A DNA stretch of 64,000 nt, taken from positions 1 to 64,000 of the IMG/VR virus record IMGVR_UViG_3300047160_003616; one strand, 5' to 3'. Every line of letters begins with the position of its first letter. Position 1 is the stretch's first letter. The notes beneath the pieces were generated by a model. That model made no database searches, was not told the origin of the DNA, and saw only the letters and a program-made list of their open reading frames with translations. Position numbers and translations under genes: made by a program. Below are positions 2,291 to 50,480 of the stretch, piece by piece. This stretch comes from a virus (taxonomy: Duplodnaviria; Caudoviricetes).

Positions 2291-5200
2291 AGACCGCCGC
2301 CACGTACTGACCGGCCGCCGGGGCGGAGCCAAACTCGATGGCGATGTGGTTGGCGTCGATGGCGCTCACCCCGGCCACCACCAGGACATTGGCGCTGGCA
2401 TCCCAGATGCTCACCGCCGGGCGGAAAGTGTTCAGGTTGTGCGTCAGGGTGGCCACGGTGGCCCCGCCGGGCACCGGGACGAGGATCTTCTTGCATACGA
2501 TGGAGGGGTCCACCGACAGCCCTGCGGTGGTGGCCAGCATCCCGCCCCCGGTGGCCGGGTTCACCGCGATGGTGCTGCCCGAGACCGCAATGCCATTGCC
2601 CTGCACCGGATTAAACGGTGGGGCACACCAACCGATGCGCGCCCACCGGTTGGTGGAGGTGTCGATGGTGCCGCCCGGGTCGGTCATCTGCCAGATGGTG
2701 TACGGGTTGGTGGCACCACCCGCGGCGGTGGTGGTGTTGGACACCACCACGATGGTGTCCTTGGACACGAAGTTGCCGGTGGCGAAGTCGGCCGGGCGGG
2801 TCCAGGCCCCGGCCGCCACCACCCACAGGCCGTTGTTGACCGAGGAGGCCTGGGCGGTGAGCAGCACGGTGGCCCCCACCGGGGCCACCACGCCGTCCAC
2901 GCTCTGCGGGGCGGACAGGCTGGCCACCGAGGTGGTGGCCACATAGTCGGCGTGCTTGGTCAGGCTGGACTGGTACAAGAAGGTATTCAGCTGGCCCTGC
3001 AGCCCGGTGACCGAACCGACCGGGATGGTGGCATTGGCCGCCATCGCCCCCACGTCGGTGTAGGTCAGGTTGACCACCGGGCCGGGGTAACCGTTGACGC
3101 TGGTGATGGTGCCGATGGCCGAGGAGCCCGGCAGTGCCACCCAGTTGGCCAACTGGGTGGGGTCGCTGCTGTTGAGCACGTAGGTGCCCGCGGCCGAGGT
3201 GCCGGTGATCACACAGATGGTGCCCTGGTGCGCGGTGCTGGTGGGCAGCGCCAGCATGGCCGCCTGGTTGGCCACCTGCACCACGTTGGTGATGGCGGCG
3301 GCCGGGATCTCGGCGAGCGGCACGTGCGCGGTGCCGTCCAGGTCGGCCTTGGCCGCCAGGGCGGCGTTCAGTCCGCCCACCTGAGCCATGGTCACCGGCA
3401 GCCCGGCGGTGTTGGTCAACTTGGAGGCATCGAAGGTGCCGGTGGTCGGGTTGAGGTTCTGTAGGTACGGCGTCAGCCCGGCGACGTAGCCAATCGGGAT
3501 GTTCTGCGGGGTCTCGGTCAGCGGCAGCTTGCCTGCGGTCAGATCGGCCTTGGTGGGCATCTGGTTCTGCAGCGCGGTGATGTTGGTCTGCGCCGTAGTC
3601 ATGTCCGACTGGGCCGCCTTGGTGCCCACCGTGGTACTCAGCGCCGCCAGATCGGTCTGGTTGGCCTTGGTGGCCACCGTGGCGTTGGTGGTGCTCAGCG
3701 CCGACGCGGTGGCGTAGTTGATCATCGAGTTGGACAGGTTGGTCAGATCGGCGGCGTTGGCCTTGGTGTCCACCGTGGCCGACAGCGCGGCCAGCTGGGC
3801 GGTGGTGGCCGTGTTGGCCATCTGGGTGTTCAGCGTCTGAACTTCGGATTCCAGCGCATAGACCGGATCGGCGGCACCCGCCTCGTTCCAGCGGTGCAGC
3901 TGCAGATGCCCGTTGGCGGTGATGACGGGGTAGGCCGCGTCGGCATCACGCACCCCGGAGTGCAGGTAGTACTTGGCCCCCACGATGCCCGCAATGGTGC
4001 CGTCGGAGTCGATGCCCCACGGGCTGTGCAGGGTCACCTGGGTGGAGAAGTCGCTCAGTCCACTGATCGGAGTGGTGAGGTTAGCGCTGGCCCAAAATGT
4101 CGTAATGGACGGCGTACCACCGCCCCCGGTGCCGCCGCCCGCCACCTGGGTTTCCAGGGCCGAGATCCGATTGATGGCGTTGGAGGTGCCGGTCAGCTGA
4201 TTACCCGAGATCAGCGTCGACAGTCCGGTCACCTGGCCCTGGGACACGGTGATCGGGTCCGACCCGGCCGAGGCGTGGCTGGCCGCGTGCGGCAACGGAG
4301 TGCGGGCATTGGTGACACTGGGATCGCTGATGAGCAGCCGGTTGGCCAGGTCGGTGGTCAGCCCGCTCACCTGGCCCTCAAAGATGGTGCCGCCGTAAGC
4401 GGCCACGTCGGACAGGGTCAGGTTCACGATGGGGGTGCTGTGGCCGTTGATCTGGCTGATGCCCCCGCCACCGCCGCCGCCCGACGCCACCACCAGGCCG
4501 CTCTTGTTGGTGACCTGACCGGAGGCGTTGATCAGCGCGATGTCGGCGGGCATCAGCGGGTCGGGGATCAGCCCGCTCACGGTGTGCACCAGCGTGGGGT
4601 CGTTCTTGTTGGCGGTGACCGTGGCCTGCAGCGCGGTCAGATCGGTGGCGTTGGCCTTGCCCAACAGTGCGGTGGCAAGGCCGGTGACCTGGCTCATGGC
4701 CACCGAGCCGCCCACCGGGATGGCCCCCACGTCGGCAGCCGCGAGGACCACCGCCCCGGTCTTGTCGTTGACCGAGAGCACCTCATTGAGCAGATACCAA
4801 CTCGTCAGGTGGCCGGGATCGGGGGCGATCAGCCCGTAGACCCCCTGCGGGGTCAGCACGATGTCACCGGGCTGCACCTGTGCCGGGTACTGCAGGGAGA
4901 GCATGGCGGTCTGGTCGGGCACCTGAATCCAGTTGGTGATCGCCGCCGGGGGGATCTGGGCAATCGGGATGTGTCCGCTGCCGTCCAGCGTGGGCGTGTT
5001 GGTCAGCGTGGTGTTGATGCCACTGACCTGAGTGGTGAGAGTGTCGATCTCGGACTGCAGGTGGGCGTCAGCGGCCTGGAAGTTAGTGGTGACGCTGGCG
5101 TCCCCATTCGCCCGCAGCGAGGCCTCCGCCGACACCGAGAGGTTCACGTCGGCGATCTTGTTGTCGGTATAGCCCTGTGCCGCAGTGGTGGTGGCATTGA

Positions 5201-8623: not shown

Positions 8624-9658
8624 TCAGGCTACCCCTTCGGTGTAGGGCTTCTCGCCCAGTTCTTCAAATAACACCTCGACATCGAGTGCCTCGGTGTCGG
8701 GCTGGTCGACCGCGGCAAACATCTCGCGTAGCACCGCGGTATCGAGCGCCTCGATCTCGTCGTACCCCAAATTGGGGTAGTTGGCGTAGATCTCGGCCTC
8801 CAGGTCCAGCCGTTCCCGGTCGGCCTGGATGGCCGCCAGGGACACGCTGGGCTCGTCAGACTCCATGCGGGCTAAAGCGCCCTGCACGCCGTCGTCGCGG
8901 CCCTCCCAGCGGTCGTAGGTGCCCCAGCCGTACTCATCGGCCCACCGGCTGGTTCCGGCCGGGCGATGGGTGCCCTGGGTCTTCTCCCAGTGCCCGTTCT
9001 CCCACTTGCCATTGACCCAACTGCCGTTGACCCAGCGCTCGCCCTTGTGCGGGCCGCTGTGGGGCGTGTAATAGCTCAGGCCGTAGTCGCCGCCGTAAGC
9101 CACCGGTGCCCGGTAGCTGTAGCTGGTTTCCAGCAGGTCGAACTGCGTCGGGTCGGCGAAGTGGGTCTGCGCCCAGTGCTTCCACATGGCGATGACGAAC
9201 TCGTTGTCGTCGGCCGCGGCCACGATCTTGTAGAGCCCCATGTCCTCAAAGCCCTGCGCCAGCTCGCGCTTGAACTCGCTGGCGTAGCGCGGGTCGTCCT
9301 TGGCCCGGCAGAACGGGCCGATGAAGACCGAGGGCACGTGCTCGTGCAGCCAGTCGAAGCTGCGCTCGTAATCATGCTGGTGGGTCCTTGCGGTGATGAC
9401 CAACCAGACCATGTCCGGGTAGCGCTTCTCCACGGTCTCCATCCAGTCCAGCACCTTCTGATTGGGCTTGGACCAGTCCATCAAGGTCCCGTCGATGTCC
9501 AAAATTCCGGCGTACATCGGCGTGCCCTTCGGGCCCGCGAACTCATTGTGGGTCAGCGGGGTGCGGAATATCTTCGCGCCATACGGCGTCGTGTTATCAG
9601 TGCTCGCCACCGGGGTAACCGGCAGCCCATAGCGGGTTTTACGTGTCTTTTTCGCCAT
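8624..9658 (-). CDS. HAD-family phosphatase (PNKP 3'-phosphatase-like) with G/W-rich and acidic C-terminus
   Basis: HAD motifs LDIDGT, ITAR, FKRE, AADDN; RBS GAGGAGG before MAKKTRK. Confidence 0.75.
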   Translation of the reverse strand: MAKKTRKTRYGLPVTPVASTDNTTPYGAKIFRTPLTHNEFAGPKGTPMYAGILDIDGTLMDWSKPNQKVLDWMETVEKRYPDMVWLVITARTHQHDYERSFDWLHEHVPSVFIGPFCRAKDDPRYASEFKRELAQGFEDMGLYKIVAAADDNEFVIAMWKHWAQTHFADPTQFDLLETSYSYRAPVAYGGDYGLSYYTPHSGPHKGERWVNGSWVNGKWENGHWEKTQGTHRPAGTSRWADEYGWGTYDRWEGRDDGVQGALARMESDEPSVSLAAIQADRERLDLEAEIYANYPNLGYDEIEALDTAVLREMFAAVDQPDTEALDVEVLFEELGEKPYTEGVA

Positions 9659-9738
9659 AAGTGACCACCTCCTCGATCTGTGTCTTTTCCTCGTCACACC
9701 CCCTATAACAGCTAGGGCTAGTAAAAAATTCCCGAGCG

Positions 9739-9939
9739 CTAGTGATGAGGGTATCGCCACGGATCATGCCGGTGGATATAGTCCTCCCGGGCTCGGCGCA
9801 GGCGTTCCTGGACCTGCCACTGCTGGTGCCAGTCGGAGGAGTACAGGTTGGCCAAGATGGCGAACTCCACGGCCAGCTCGGCCTTGGCCTCCTCGGACAG
9901 CTCGTCATGGATCGGGTCCGGGCGCTTGGTCGGTTCCAT
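9739..9939 (-). CDS. Hypothetical protein (66 aa)
   Basis: ORF with AAGG RBS and phage-like codon use. Confidence 0.55.
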   Translation of the reverse strand: MEPTKRPDPIHDELSEEAKAELAVEFAILANLYSSDWHQQWQVQERLRRAREDYIHRHDPWRYPHH

Positions 9940-28567: not shown

Positions 28568-29296
28568 CTACGGCATGGTGATGCCGTGTGGCACGATCAC
28601 GTCGCCCTGGGTCATCAGCAGGGTCTCGAAATCGCTGAAGCTCACATCGAATTGGCCCCTGCGCCCGAAATCCGGGCCCCAACTGGTCAGACAGGTGACC
28701 AGCTGAGTGCTGTAGTTGATACCCAGGGCCAGGTACTCATGTCCCCCGGCCACGTTCTCATCAGTCAGCGCCCCGATATGCACCAGCCCGGAGGGGTCCG
28801 GGTTGAACATAGAGCGCGTCCATAATGTGCCCACCAAACATGGCGTGACCTGCAAAGCGGCACGAAATTCAGCGAAGCCGAAACAATGCTGGTATCTGTC
28901 GGCCCAATTCAACTCCACGGCGGCCTTAGCTATATCCAATCCATCGCTGCCCCCATCATGGGGCGGATAAAAATACTCCGGGTCGCCCTCCTCGTGGGTG
29001 GCCACCGAGTAGAACTGCAGCGCCAGGGACTCGGTGCACCAACTCACCTTCTTGGCCCGCCGCACCGGGGCGGCGAAGTCGGTATTAAAAAATCCGGCCA
29101 TCGCATTGCCGGTGCAGGCGTTGGTGTTCCATTGATTCAAAATTGGCTGGGTATAAGACCACAGCGTCGTTACGTCACGTGACGGTTTGTCGGCCGCAAA
29201 GGCGTAGTTAAGCGAGCGCGTGTCGTGATGGATGTGACGCCCCAACCGGTAGGGCGCATCGGTGGGCACCGGCAATTTATGAATGATCTCGGCCAT
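28568..29296 (-). CDS. Papain-like (C1A) cysteine peptidase
   Basis: ILNQWNTNACTGNA (Gln and catalytic Cys), GGHEY (His), and LTSWG where NSWG is usual. Confidence 0.75.
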   Translation of the reverse strand: MAEIIHKLPVPTDAPYRLGRHIHHDTRSLNYAFAADKPSRDVTTLWSYTQPILNQWNTNACTGNAMAGFFNTDFAAPVRRAKKVSWCTESLALQFYSVATHEEGDPEYFYPPHDGGSDGLDIAKAAVELNWADRYQHCFGFAEFRAALQVTPCLVGTLWTRSMFNPDPSGLVHIGALTDENVAGGHEYLALGINYSTQLVTCLTSWGPDFGRRGQFDVSFSDFETLLMTQGDVIVPHGITMP

Positions 29297-29329
29297 AAAA
29301 AACCTCCTCTTCTTCGGAGGAGGTTTTTT
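29297..29329 (-). terminator. Intrinsic terminator closing the guide array; its 3' arm is the peptidase RBS
   Basis: A6-CCTCCTC-CGAAGAA-GAGGAGG-T6 followed directly by ATG. Confidence 0.85.
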
Positions 29330-29332
29330 GGG

Positions 29333-29427
29333 TAAAGCCCCTGCCTTGCCGAGCCCGGCCTAGCCACGCCCAACCTGGCCTTGCCAGGCCTTGCCGAGCC
29401 CAGCCTTGCCCGGCCGCGCCGCGCCAA
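29333..29427 (-). ncRNA. Putative guide unit U6 (17 pentamers, one GGT)
   Basis: Perfect 5-nt register from 29343 to 29427. Confidence 0.65.
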
Positions 29428-29465
29428 GATCTAGCCTCCTCACCTATTAGGTGGGGAGATGAAGG

Positions 29466-29566
29466 TAAAACCCCTGCCCTGCCCCGCCGGGCCGAGCCAG
29501 GCCGTGCCCGGCCTTGCCGATGCCGCGCCGCGCCAAGCCACGCCCTGCCTAGCCATGGCAAGTCTG
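29466..29566 (-). ncRNA. Putative guide unit U5 (16 pentamers, one 1-nt insertion)
   Basis: Shares 5' CAGACTTGCCATGGC with U4. Confidence 0.65.
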
Positions 29567-29585
29567 TTGAAAAATTGAGTTGTGA

Positions 29586-29720
29586 TAAAGCCCCTGCCCT
29601 GCCATGCCGCGCCTTGGCTAGGCGAGCCACGCCGTGCCATGCCGTGCCAAGCCTAGCCACGCCTAGCCGGGCCTAGCCGCGCCGGGCCACGGCCTGCCGA
29701 GCCCTGCCATGGCAAGTCTG
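29586..29720 (-). ncRNA. Putative guide unit U4 (23 pentamers)
   Basis: Perfect register 29596-29710, with three GCC-for-GGC variants. Confidence 0.65.
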
Positions 29721-29730
29721 AAGTTGTGTG

Positions 29731-29820
29731 TAAAACCCCTGCCCTGCCTAGCCCAGCCGTGCCGGGCCGAGGCCAGCCACGCCGCGCCTAGCCATGCCAG
29801 GCCATGCCTCGCCACGTCAA
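29731..29820 (-). ncRNA. Putative guide unit U3 (15 pentamers)
   Basis: Register 29741-29815. Confidence 0.65.
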
Positions 29821-29836
29821 GTCATGAAATTATTGT

Positions 29837-29911
29837 TAAAGCCCCTGCCTTGCCTAGCCTCGACACGCCACGCCCAGGCCCGCCCGGCCATGCCAGGCCT
29901 CGCCGAGTCCG
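29837..29911 (-). ncRNA. Putative guide unit U2 (12 pentamers)
   Basis: Register 29847-29906. Confidence 0.62.
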
Positions 29912-29931
29912 TGAAAGATTTGAATTGTAGG

Positions 29932-30022
29932 TAAAGCCCCTGCCTCGCCGAGCCGAGCCCCAGCCTTGCCTTGCCTCGCCGTGCCACGCCACGCCATGGC
30001 TTGCCAAGCCGCGCCCTGCCAC
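29932..30022 (-). ncRNA. Putative guide unit U1 (16 pentamers, one 1-nt insertion)
   Basis: Begins 2 nt after the stop of the wHTH gene. Confidence 0.65.
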
Positions 30023-30024
30023 GA

Positions 30025-30582
30025 TTATTTGTCGCCGAGCAGCCCTTCCAGTCGTGTCAGCCGTTCCTGCACTTTATCCAGCTCGGTGGTGGTGTGCTCC
30101 TTGGTGCTGCGATGATCCTGCTGAATCAGTTGCATCGCTGCGGCCAACTCACGCTGTTGCACGTCCAGGCGGCGGCAGAAGTCCACCTGGGCGGCGAATG
30201 CCGCCCCCACCACCTCAAAGGCTTGCCGGGCGATGGGGTCCAGGGCCAACCAGTCCACATGAGTCACCGCGTTTTGCCCGCGCACCAGAGCCTTGGAGGA
30301 CTTGCGCTGATGCCGCCGGGCCAGCCGCATGTGCTCGGGGGCCTGAAGCACGCGATAACCCGTGTTAATCACCGCGTCAATAGCACGGTTGTCGACACGT
30401 TCAAACTCGCGGGCGGCCCGCTGGGTGGCCTGTTGCAGCACCCGGCGATCCTTATCCCCGTCGAGACCCAGCGCCTCACCCATCGCCTCGTAGGTCAGTG
30501 TCCCATCCACGGGGGTGGTCCTGAGCAGGTCGTAGATGACCCGCCAGCGGGCTCGCTCGTTGAGCGGGGAGAACGGGCTCAT
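30025..30582 (-). CDS. Winged-helix/coiled-coil partner of the RAMP gene
   Basis: LTYEAMGEALGL...VINTGYRVL wHTH-like segment and helical C-terminus; ATGA-coupled to the RAMP gene. Confidence 0.7.
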   Translation of the reverse strand: MSPFSPLNERARWRVIYDLLRTTPVDGTLTYEAMGEALGLDGDKDRRVLQQATQRAAREFERVDNRAIDAVINTGYRVLQAPEHMRLARRHQRKSSKALVRGQNAVTHVDWLALDPIARQAFEVVGAAFAAQVDFCRRLDVQQRELAAAMQLIQQDHRSTKEHTTTELDKVQERLTRLEGLLGDK

Positions 30583-31154
30583 GACTGCTTGACCCCCATC
30601 ACCTCAAAGCGACCGTAGAGGGGACGACGCTCGCCCAGTCCGATCAACAGCCCCGCCGTGGTGGCGATGCGTTCGATGTCCACCAACTCCAGCAGGGCCG
30701 TGTCCAGGGTGCCGTTGACCTCCACCGCCCACTCGGGGAACCACGGGCGCACTCGCATCACCCGGCTGGCCCCCACCTTGACGCTGGCCCGGTAGTAGAA
30801 CGTGGCCGCGTACAGCTCCTCGACGGTGCGCGGGCCCTTGTAGCCCAGCGCGATCACGTCGTCCTTGATCAACACGCCCTGCTCCACCTGCTTGCCCTGT
30901 TTGGTCTTGCGACCACCCTCGATCAGGCACTTGAAGATGTTGGCACCGGGGATATAGGGGCCCTCCACTTCATCGAAGTAGATCCCGCCGAAAAACTCGG
31001 TGCGGGCCAGCAGGTGATGGTCCTCGTCGGTCTTGTTGCGTTTTCGGGTCAGGCGCTTGACCTCTTTGGCCGCGGGATCGAGCGGATCGGCCAGCCGGGC
31101 ACTGTGCATGATCAGCGGACGGGTTCCCCGAAGGGTGAGGGTGAAATCAATCAT
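30579..31154 (-). CDS. Minimal Cas7/Csm3-like RAMP protein (Vipr-like effector, 191 aa)
   Basis: FTLTLRGTRPLIMH (RRM beta1), PYIPGANIFKCLIEGG (cf. Csm3 P.IPGSSlKG), RVRPWFPEW, and G-rich loop AGLLIGLGERRPLYGRFEV. Confidence 0.82.
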   Translation of the reverse strand: MIDFTLTLRGTRPLIMHSARLADPLDPAAKEVKRLTRKRNKTDEDHHLLARTEFFGGIYFDEVEGPYIPGANIFKCLIEGGRKTKQGKQVEQGVLIKDDVIALGYKGPRTVEELYAATFYYRASVKVGASRVMRVRPWFPEWAVEVNGTLDTALLELVDIERIATTAGLLIGLGERRPLYGRFEVMGVKQS

Positions 31155-31161
31155 GGCGTAG

Positions 31162-31200
31162 ATGCTATAGGACTGTCACGAGGCGTGCAATATATTCCAC
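31162..31200 (-). promoter_or_regulatory. SigA-like promoter TTGCAC-N17-TAGCAT (leaderless) with a near-palindrome over the -35
   Basis: -35 at 31185-31190, -10 at 31162-31167, ATG 7 nt after the -10, no SD; GTGGAATATATTGCAC at 31185-31200. Confidence 0.65.
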
Positions 31201-31284
31201 GATTAAGGTCACAGTGCAAACACAACCACATAGCGTGGCGGTCGGACCACACCATCAGGCAGCCGCAGCGACAGCGGTCGTCGG

Positions 31285-33043: not shown

Positions 33044-33517
33044 TCATACGCGGTCCAGGTCATTATGGGTGAACAGCTCATTGCGTTTGGCGATCACAGC
33101 CGCTTCGGCCTCGGGGATGGTGGGAAAACGGCCCGCATGGATGTACTTGCCATTGTGCTTAACCTGAGCCCTCCATGCCCCCCTAGCCTTATCCCAAATC
33201 ACTCCCCGCACACCCGATGTACCAGCCGAATTGGGGCCCGACCGATTCTCCTTGTTCTGCTTACTGGTCACCAAGCGCAGATGAGCAGGGTTGACACAAT
33301 GCTTGGGACAGGTATGACGATGGTCTAACTCCCGATCATCGGGAATAGGCCCATGTGCCCACTCGTAAGCAATCCGGTGCCCATACTTCATCGTGCCGCC
33401 GAGATAGAACTCGGCATATCCCTTGCAGGTGCGGCCCGCCGTCCACAGCCAACAATCACCTGAGCGATCTACTTTGCTCCAAAACCGCTCCTCGGTGGTC
33501 AATGACCATCTGGGCAT
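33044..33517 (-). CDS. HNH homing endonuclease with AP2 domain
   Basis: RFWSKVD..GDCWLW, HRIAY, LDH..CVNPAHL, and SGVRGV.W...WRAQ. Confidence 0.9.
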   Translation of the reverse strand: MPRWSLTTEERFWSKVDRSGDCWLWTAGRTCKGYAEFYLGGTMKYGHRIAYEWAHGPIPDDRELDHRHTCPKHCVNPAHLRLVTSKQNKENRSGPNSAGTSGVRGVIWDKARGAWRAQVKHNGKYIHAGRFPTIPEAEAAVIAKRNELFTHNDLDRV

Positions 33518-49826: not shown

Positions 49827-50480
49827 TCACCTGATGTGGAAGGACGAAGGGGTGTGGCCCACCGAGATGATCGAGGCACGCACGGCCTCCATCACGTTGG
49901 GGTCTTTGACCACCAGCTTGGTCAGGGCCTTTTCGTCCAGCTTGGTCTCGGTCTTGACCACCTGCTTGAACACCTTGGCCGAGTACTCGTCGCCGAGTAG
50001 TTTGCGCAGCTTGTCGTAGTCCAGGTTGAGCTTGGGCTTGCCGCCCTCCCGGGTGAACTTCTTACCCAGCGCGGGCACCTCGGCCTCCCCGGCGGCATAG
50101 CCGGGGTCGGGCACCGCGTCGGCGATGTTGGCCGCGGTGATGTGCGCGAACACCCGGGCCCTCCGCGCCTCATAGCGCAGCTTGATCAGGTCCACCAGCT
50201 CCTGAAAGTCCAGCTGCTCGGTCATCATGGCGGCCAGCTGCTCCTCGGTACAGGGCTCCTCGGACTCGGCGTCAATCGGGTTGGCCAGCATGGTCTCCAC
50301 CAGCCCGGAGAGCTTTTTGGTCAGCTCGGCCAGCCGCACGATGTCGACCTTGTCCAGGGCATTCTGCAGCTCGGTGCGGCGCTGCTCGGCCGAGAGCTGT
50401 TTCTCCGGTGCCGCGGCGGCCTCCTCGGCCAGCGCCTCGTAAGCGTCGACCACGGCTTCCAGTTCTTCATTGATGGTCAT
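49827..50480 (-). CDS. Hypothetical protein (217 aa)
   Basis: RBS GAGAAGAGG. Confidence 0.7.
   Translation of the reverse strand: MTINEELEAVVDAYEALAEEAAAAPEKQLSAEQRRTELQNALDKVDIVRLAELTKKLSGLVETMLANPIDAESEEPCTEEQLAAMMTEQLDFQELVDLIKLRYEARRARVFAHITAANIADAVPDPGYAAGEAEVPALGKKFTREGGKPKLNLDYDKLRKLLGDEYSAKVFKQVVKTETKLDEKALTKLVVKDPNVMEAVRASIISVGHTPSSFHIR

Follow-up and report, generated by a model that had tools for sequence, protein, structure and literature searches.

A type II-like VIPR system, very probably, on a large uncultured phage related to mycobacteriophage myoviruses

VIPR (Viral Interference Programmable Repeat) systems, described in 2026 preprints from one group, consist of a minimal RAMP protein (Vipr), an accessory gene (vap) and vrRNAs in which GGY and NN alternate ahead of an invariable 3' tail; they are aimed at rival phages, satellites and prophages, with no self-targeting (bioRxiv 10.64898/2026.04.26.720920,.720927, 2026.10.15.759431). 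Here we examine a locus at positions 29297-31200 of a 64,000-nucleotide window, the first 64 kb of a 76,648-bp IMG/VR virus record (IMGVR_UViG_3300047160_003616; 63.8% GC, CheckV completeness ~51%). An earlier reading of the letters alone (the sequence-only reading) had seen in it a Cas7-like RAMP, a partner gene and an array of GGY-NN pentamers, and had pointed to phage VIPR systems as having GGY/NN guides. This proved accurate: these are the parts that the preprints describe, and we conclude with high confidence that the locus is a type II-like VIPR system and that its carrier is an uncultured phage, large, probably lytic and with relatives among the mycobacteriophage myoviruses.

In the published systems the Vipr filament has one protomer for each repeat, GGY being sequestered and NN presented; electron cryo-microscopy (cryo-EM) shows two adjacent protomers jointly holding each GGY; the target is double-stranded DNA, of which one base is passed over in every unit, and it is silenced transcriptionally, not cleaved; and the vap genes of type II are predicted DNA binders, of which vap1 enhances protection (bioRxiv 10.64898/2026.04.26.720920,.720927). 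The earlier picture of one RAMP subunit clamping each GGY and showing NN for gapped pairing agrees with this in its stoichiometry and its gaps, and departs from it in the clamp, which in SUSP1 is shared by two protomers. The preprints also describe a guide to the SUSP1 satellite recombinase that reads active-site codons in wobble phase, and solo vrRNAs in SUSP1-family phages and their satellites; they list pseudoknot, staggered and hammerhead architectures, and the word tRNA appears in none of the three main texts (bioRxiv 10.64898/2026.04.26.720920,.720927, 2026.10.15.759431).

The elements of the locus, all on the minus strand within 29297-31200 apart from the distal part of the upstream region, are as follows.

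31155..31284, minus strand: upstream intergenic region, candidate promoter of the vipr-vap-vrRNA operon
30579..31154, minus strand: vipr, 191-aa predicted single-RRM RAMP (PDB 36pp_D homology and AlphaFold2 fold)
30025..30582, minus strand: vap, 185-aa putative vap1-type accessory, with a predicted N-terminal winged-helix-like domain and a C-terminal coiled coil
29932..30020, minus strand: vrRNA 1 (vr1), 16 pentamers (one a 6-nt unit) and tail GGGGCTTTA
29837..29909, minus strand: vrRNA 2 (vr2), 13 pentamers and tail
29731..29823, minus strand: vrRNA 3 (vr3), 5' handle GACTT GACGT, 15 pentamers and tail GGGGTTTTA
29586..29718, minus strand: vrRNA 4 (vr4), 5' handle GACTT GCCAT, 23 pentamers and tail
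29466..29564, minus strand: vrRNA 5 (vr5), handle, 16 pentamers (one a 6-nt unit, GGCATC) and tail
29436..29459, minus strand: hairpin in the vrRNA 5/vrRNA 6 linker, 9/10 pairs, no T-run, read by eye
29333..29430, minus strand: vrRNA 6 (vr6), handle ATCTT, 17 pentamers and tail GGGGCTTTA
29297..29330, no single strand: bidirectional intrinsic terminator closing the array, hairpin 29303-29320, T-runs on both strands

The evidence that carries the identification begins with the 191-aa protein. A phmmer search of the Protein Data Bank aligned its residues 6-186 to residues 6-188 of chain 36pp_D, 'SUSP1 Vipr protein', with an E-value of 9.9e-33; the protein also matches phrog_4652 (5e-51). By tblastn, Vipr homologues are present in 130 cultured phage records, all of them annotated as hypothetical. 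The best of these are in Gordonia phage MakoManhole (53% identity), Mycobacterium phage LittleE (48%) and Gordonia phage Trine (47%), and the SUSP1/Felix-O1-like group stands at 36%. Identity is 36% to the SUSP1 protein and 41% to that of the Pseudomonas prophage LESphi2, which themselves share 38%.

A single-sequence AlphaFold2 model, with a predicted local distance difference test score (pLDDT) of 32, was set aside and replaced by a fold made with a 54-sequence alignment (pLDDT 94.8, predicted template-modelling score 0.87). Foldseek, the comparison to Csm3 and Cas7 that the sequence-only reading had proposed as a check, placed only type III Cas7-family backbones at the top of the list: Cmr4 (6s6b_I, 4.7e-6) and several Csm3 chains, with probability 1.0 and ~10% identity. 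The model has a beta-hairpin at 120-139 that includes R136, the loop GLGERRPLYG at 172-181 and a helical pair at 27-57 that includes K33. As modelled, the protein is a single-RRM RAMP with a glycine-rich loop and a thumb, a Cas7-type fold, and both the homology and the alignment-based fold uphold the Cas7-like RAMP first read from the letters.

The second line of evidence is the array itself, which was parsed into 106 pentamers. Position 1 is G in 105 (99%), position 2 is G in 89 (84%) and position 3 is C in 103 (97%); at positions 4 and 5 the information content is 0.08 and 0.00 bits, and each of the 16 dinucleotides is represented. The two remaining bases of each pentamer therefore vary as freely as had been claimed. 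Near-fixation of GGC/GGT also holds in its conservation, though hardly as an alternation of C and T, since GGT accounts for only 3/106 pentamers and the scaffold is in practice GGC. The autocorrelation is highest at lags 5, 10 and 15 (0.56, 0.51 and 0.48), with other lags to 15 at 0.19-0.32. Perfect runs of at least four GGYNN occur 13 times on the contig, 10 of them in the array, against an expectation of ~1 in the whole shuffled contig.

There are six units, as the sequence-only reading had counted; each comprises 13-25 pentamers when the degenerate 5' handle units (GACTT GCCAT) are included, not 12-23. The units end at 29932, 29837, 29731, 29586, 29466 and 29333, and the common ending that had been noticed is real: each closes in GGCAGGGG(C/T)TTTA (6/6). 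The 3' tail is GGCAGGGGYTTTA, 13 nt long and kept in 6/6 units, and the closest relatives have the same short tail, GGCAnGGG-N-T-Y-TA-CC. Units 3-5 share a conserved in-register handle, GACTT G(C/A)C(A/G)T; unit 2, unit 6 and a solo unit described below start with GACTC, ATCTT and ATCTC, respectively. An AT-rich linker of 12-35 nt separates each tail from the next handle. Linker and handle together (ACTTCGACTTGACGTGGCGA) recur in a related locus, L007, and we regard them as conserved elements for that reason. They cannot serve as promoters, since a -10 box would have to lie within the variable repeats.

Two further features of the units were noted. The first is a single one-base insertion in vr1 (29960-29966) and another in vr5 (29520-29525), which give the 6-nt units GGCTG+G and GGCATC. 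The second is a seventh, solo vrRNA-like unit outside the window, at contig positions 73,743-73,800 (plus strand), between minus-strand genes. It has the handle ATCTC, 10 pentamers and the end GGCAAGGGTTTTA, with a TAAAAT -10-like box 13 nt upstream, and it adds to the guide repertoire.

The arrangement of these parts is compact. Vipr, vap and the six vrRNAs form one minus-strand unit ended by a strong terminator. The ATG of vap overlaps the TGA of vipr as ATGA, both open reading frames are intact, and the array occupies 690 nt. The open reading frame coordinates confirm the ATGA coupling of the 185-aa gene to the 191-aa gene that had been reported; the distance given from the second gene to the array, 2 nt, was wrong, the first GGC lying 4 nt past the vap stop codon. 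That a terminator closes the array is borne out by the hairpin at 29303-29320 with its T-run: the last unit and terminator fold with a z of -4.0, and 0/200 shuffles fold as well. The next gene, 29296..28568, encodes a peptidase (phrog_16701). A GGYNN-run scan found no vrRNA tract in the intergenic region upstream of vipr.

The product of vap is homologous over its full length to the products of the genes after vipr in two cultured phages, LittleE gp33 (E 4e-22) and MakoManhole gp77 (1e-14), the latter annotated as 'DNA binding protein'. Its direct similarity to SUSP1 vap1 is weak (3e-4) and confined to a central GYRV block; LittleE (3e-8) and MakoManhole (2e-7) bridge the two, so the link to vap1 is transitive. 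The ESM Atlas model of the protein (pLDDT 0.82) aligns over residues 5-85 to winged-helix clusters (PuR_N, HTH_11, ScpB), with template-modelling scores of up to 0.63 by target. On this homology vap appears to be a vap1-type accessory, and the winged helix-turn-helix partner proposed earlier is a reasonable description of its N-terminus. Searches of Pfam, NCBIfam and PADLOC assigned vap to no family; because these databases and Rfam contain no Vipr, Vap or vrRNA models, such blanks are uninformative.

If vipr and the pentamer tracts belong together, their association should recur, and this was the check that the sequence-only reading had put forward: do RAMP homologs flank GGY-NN arrays, or are there homologs without them? 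In 76/80 homolog loci fetched from IMG/VR there is at least one perfect same-strand run of at least four GGYNN. Tracts in the 80 loci number 274 on the same strand as vipr versus 21 on the opposite strand, and they are concentrated immediately 5' of vipr or immediately 3' of vap, as they are in cultured phages. Homologs are therefore found beside pentamer arrays in nearly every case, and the outcome that would have refuted the reading did not arise. One related locus, L037, has besides its same-strand array at 8690-9850 five opposite-strand tracts at 3609-4120, which lie ~6 kb from vipr and may represent either a second array or a solo array that faces the other way.

Equally, the locus is not CRISPR-Cas despite its Cas7-like fold, for it has neither a CRISPR array nor an adaptation module. 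Profiles for Cas1, Cas2 and Cas6 were silent on the 76.6-kb contig and rang in control genomes, and Tandem Repeats Finder detected no repeat-spacer array on the contig; the absence of these genes and of such an array, read earlier from the letters, is thus confirmed.

Of the features that distinguish VIPR, the locus has a homologous Vipr, a minimal RAMP fold, the GGY- and target-contact residues H17, K33, R136 and R177 (considered below), same-strand vrRNAs, an invariable 3' tail and a minimal viral locus. A mark of type II, a vap1-type accessory gene downstream of vipr with a predicted DNA-binding product, is likewise present. Judged by pairwise identity and vap homology, and not by the authors' phylogeny, type II is probably the best fit, given the vap1-type partner together with the downstream multi-vrRNA array.

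Comparison to SUSP1, whose VIPR is of type II, brings out both the shared plan and the departures from it. The two have in common Vipr homology over the full length (36%), the order vipr-vap-downstream multi-vrRNA array, GGY-NN pentamers, last repeats of the form GGYA(G/T)GGG, a lytic carrier (probably so here) with its own replication genes, solo vrRNAs elsewhere in the genome and a guide that lies, putatively in the case of vr4, over active-site codons with the skip at the wobble position (in SUSP1, those of the satellite recombinase). They differ in the scaffold, which is mostly GGT in SUSP1 and almost pure GGC here, and in the tail, which in SUSP1 is a ~40-nt pseudoknot and here a 13-nt unstructured motif followed by an AU-rich linker. 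In addition, there is here no vrRNA upstream of vipr, the host clade is probably actinobacterial, and vap shares only the central block with vap1.

MakoManhole, Trine and LittleE stand closer. They hold the closest cultured Viprs (47-53%), the same vap type and GGC-rich tracts ending in GGCA(G/T)GG; in these phages, however, the tract is followed by a tRNA-like acceptor/T-arm minihelix (GGTTCGAnTCC), of which there is none in the array of the window. Such a minihelix, with a 7-bp stem and a UUCGAnU loop, follows vrRNA tracts in 12/84 related loci, and ARAGORN calls one of those in Trine a tRNA of unknown identity. The minihelix-bearing tracts of the three phages, in locus coordinates, are these.

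2975-3040 and 3095-3150: MakoManhole
2734-2800, 4195-4255 and 4324-4400: LittleE
3700-3860: Trine

The minihelices suggest that arrays of these relatives are interspersed with tRNA-like elements and may be processed by RNase P or RNase Z.

The resemblance to Class 1 Cas7 proteins (Csm3, Cmr4) is one of fold and principle: an RRM core, a glycine-rich loop and a thumb (Foldseek best 6s6b_I, 9ash_F and 6ifl_F, probability 1.0), and, for Cas7 and Vipr alike, polymerisation along a guide with periodic base flipping. Identity to the 191-aa protein is only ~10%; that protein has a single RRM, and the locus has no large subunit, no cas1, cas2 or cas6 and no repeat-spacer array. The period also differs, being 5 nt with three sequestered bases and gapped target reading in Vipr versus 6 nt with one in Cas7.

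What the guides are aimed at was examined by applying the published 1-nt-skip rule, with shuffled guides as the null model and a criterion of at least 80% NN match. No guide reaches an 80% self match on the 76.6-kb contig, which agrees with the control that the VIPR papers report for genuine systems. Nor does any guide match 1.3 Mb of related VIPR-carrying phages above the shuffled-guide null; with the exception of vr4, nothing exceeds the shuffled null on the contig, in the related VIPR phages or in exonuclease-carrying loci, and the target scans returned no target for vr2, vr5 or the solo vrRNA. The best self match is that of vr6, 24/34 (71%) at 28857 (plus strand), inside the peptidase gene (28568-29296); the shuffled-guide maximum is 23, and the match is probably due to chance.

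Because published targets put the skipped base at the wobble position, vr4 was decoded to peptides. The antisense peptide of its 25 units, LLIAFY(D/E)TVIV(K/N)YTYGYAGTL(D/E)LI(K/N), matches by tblastn only RecE-like exonuclease genes of actinophages and prophages, carried by a Mycobacterium abscessus prophage, Rhodococcus phage Sleepyhead and Gordonia phage Frokostdame; the forward-orientation peptide gave no tblastn match. Each of the matched genes adjoins a RecT-like gene, and the family is PHROG 298, 'exonuclease'. The guide is antisense to the ...VNYTxGYAGTLDLI codons of these genes, and units 2-15 agree with Frokostdame at 26/28 bases, with the skips on wobble positions.

A search of IMG/VR seeded with vr4 units 2-10 returned 25 hits, 24/25 of which are antisense to GYAGTLDLI...D(L/V)KT, the PD-(D/E)XK active site. 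Over units 11-23, which did not form part of the seed, these hits agree with the guide at 10.9/26 bases on average and at 16/26 in the best case, compared to a mean of 7.6 for permuted guides (permutation P 0.012 for the mean and 0.013 for the maximum); shifting the register reduces the mean to 3.2-6.8. Control seeds of 16 bases from vr6, vr3, vr1 and vr5 gave remainder identities of 17-31%, which is the level of chance. Seeds of 18 bases from vr4 (units 8-16) and vr6 (units 4-12) gave 0 hits in IMG/VR, and extended vr4 seeds in species-representative genomes and metagenomes led to the same family, with nothing above 34/50. No homolog of the matched exonuclease is present on the 76.6-kb contig.

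On balance, we favor the view that vr4 is aimed at the RecE-like exonuclease gene family. The claim is made for the gene family only, because even the closest match over the full length, at 72%, falls short of the 80% criterion, and the earlier proposal that the guides act against competing phages finds support to that extent and no further.

Two other guides gave candidates near the same site. An (S/G)VTTIL motif lies in frame ~110-120 codons upstream of the vr4 site, and vr1 has its best matches there (17/24); as a guide to the SVTTIL codons of the exonuclease family, vr1 reaches a permutation P of 0.089, which is suggestive and does not establish it. The top four hits of vr3, ~1 kb downstream of the vr4 site, have scattered mismatches and were rejected, and the vr3 scans are at chance.

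A functional VIPR need not be directed at rivals, and its guides could instead regulate genes of the phage itself or of its host. Self-targets could lie in the missing half of a contig that is ~51% complete, 6/7 guides are without an identified target, and the vr6 match falls in the adjacent peptidase gene. Yet across 76.6 kb no self match reaches 80% or stands clearly above the shuffled-guide null, the published systems target satellites and prophages without self-targeting, and vr4 matches a phage gene family that was not found on the contig. We consider regulation of own or host genes unlikely.

Several observations weigh against the reading of the locus as a type II-like VIPR system with a guide to the exonuclease family. 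For vr4, the E-values of the tblastn matches are weak (0.3 to 5), the P of 0.012 is borderline once corrected for the five seeds examined, and the best full-length match is 36/50; for all guides together, scans of IMG/VR, species-representative genomes and metagenomes contain no NN match of at least 80%. For the RNAs, folding predicts no conserved structure in the units, a pseudoknot included, and leaves the tail unpaired; a pseudoknot cap is described for the SUSP1 clade only. For the promoter that the sequence-only reading had placed ahead of vipr, the candidate region offers a weak consensus match only, GTGACA-18-CATGAT, which is the sole one and overlaps the vipr start codon, and a TATATT -10-like box ~35 nt 5' of the vipr ATG was seen by eye only. 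The similarity basis of the type assignment, given above, belongs here too. Finally, D177 of SUSP1 Vipr, whose alanine mutant kills silencing, is E in the 191-aa protein, and the stacking W178 is R.

The last point raises the possibility of a decaying or inactive remnant in which glycine-rich-loop (G-loop) residues essential in SUSP1 have been mutated. We mapped the cryo-EM contact residues of SUSP1 Vipr onto alignments with 54 relatives. H17, R136 (SUSP1 R138) and R177 (SUSP1 R179) are invariant in the 54 relatives, and K33 is present. The D177-W178 pair of SUSP1 corresponds to E175-R176, so that the carboxylate is kept and the aromatic stacker is now Arg; the G-loop reads GLGERRPLYGRF, against a family consensus of GLGDWRPRFGRF. 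These substitutions, and the one-base insertions in vr1 and in vr5, count in favor of decay. Against it, the vipr and vap frames are intact and translationally coupled, and the scaffold positions of the 106 pentamers are still 84-99% conserved, a sign that a GGC-binding protein keeps them under selection. The E-R variant has, moreover, been maintained: because the two closest relatives (97% and 87% identity) share it, the alignment marks it as a lineage trait, not decay, and position 176 varies elsewhere in the family (Y, H, F). An inactive remnant is accordingly most improbable, and activity of a Vipr with an E-R G-loop appears plausible from these comparisons.

A further difference from SUSP1 lies in the helix-1 pocket, which is A71/N72 here and E71/M72 there. 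N72 is invariant in the clade, and GGC is far more frequent than GGT in the tracts of the relatives (1674 C versus 328 T); we infer that N72 may be linked to the preference for GGC.

That the locus is not RNA-guided at all, being simple-sequence DNA, a coding repeat or a divergent array-less CRISPR-Cas system, as the open reading frames that can be drawn through the array on both strands and the Cas7-like fold of Vipr might suggest, is effectively refuted by the direct homology to a protein with solved Vipr-vrRNA structures (36pp) and by tracts strand-locked to vipr in 76/80 independent loci, to which may be added that those frames are low-complexity repeat read-throughs, that the array has a conserved 13-nt tail in its units and a terminator at its end, and that the contig has no cas1, cas2, cas6 or repeat-spacer array.

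For the type II-like VIPR system that we take the locus to be, a mechanism can be outlined by analogy, all steps past the sequence anatomy being inferred from SUSP1. Vipr protomers would polymerise along each vrRNA, one per pentamer, with GGC held in protein pockets and the two variable bases displayed. The filament would bind double-stranded DNA and read one strand as NN-x-NN-x, every third base being skipped; a gapped R-loop or triplex would form and block transcription, with the winged-helix Vap assisting. Host RNases would probably release the units by cutting the AU-rich stretch that leads from each tail, GGCAG-GGGGYUUUA, to the 5' handle that follows it, GACUUGCCAU. In the case of vr4 the target would be the active-site-coding region of a RecE-like PD-(D/E)XK exonuclease gene in the RecET module of temperate actinophages and prophages. 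Because the skipped bases fall on codon wobble positions, synonymous drift would hardly break the match.

A more specific proposal, which we put forward tentatively and regard as rather less probable than not, is that the locus represents an actinophage sub-lineage of VIPR. Such a sub-lineage would have its own mode of guide maturation and capping, unlike that of any architecture reported to date (an unstructured GGGGYUUUA tail, AU-rich linkers and the GACUUGCCAU handle, with no pseudoknot, ribozyme or tRNA-like element), an altered GGC-specific pocket (the E-R G-loop and N72) and an array that disables the RecET of rival temperate phages by way of the exonuclease active-site codons (vr4, possibly vr1).

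The remainder of the contig gives an indication of the carrier. Its genes include those for a DnaE-like polymerase, a primase, a DnaB helicase, a UvsX-like recombinase and a large virion protein. The polymerase is 45% and the virion protein 39% identical to the counterparts in Mycobacterium phage Phrappuccino, followed by Myrna and Catera-like phages; a 12-kb megablast query returned nothing closely related among cultured phages. From these similarities the carrier looks like a large uncultured actinobacteria-type myovirus of ~150 kb, related to mycobacteriophage myoviruses and probably lytic. Two neighboring features were recorded in passing. At 33044-33517 (minus strand) a 157-aa open reading frame resembles, by eye, a homing endonuclease of HNH/AP2 type (H-x-C...N-P-x-H-L, then an AP2-like RGV..W..A). 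At 49901-49968, inside the replication-gene region, there is a 24-nt tandem repeat (2.8 copies, 68% matching), probably a coding repeat.

VIPR itself has been known since 2026; what is new here is the solo vrRNA, the lineage-specific E-R G-loop, the short unstructured tail and the match of vr4 to the exonuclease family. As a class of RNA-guided DNA recognition VIPR is months old; its code is gapped, and it has been proposed as the ancestor of the RAMPs of CRISPR. The present locus extends it to a large uncultured actinophage and reveals natural variation at residues that cryo-EM identified as critical, with E in place of D177, R in place of W178 and variation in the Y3 pocket. Together with these variant residues, the pseudoknot-free tail offers a way to ask which features Vipr requires for binding and capping a vrRNA. 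If the vr4 target is true, a RecE-like recombination exonuclease joins the genes that phages silence in their rivals, and the principle of reading active-site codons with the skip on the wobble position is repeated. The unannotated VIPR loci of LittleE, MakoManhole and Trine sit in phages of tractable hosts, Mycobacterium smegmatis and Gordonia, which makes this biology testable.

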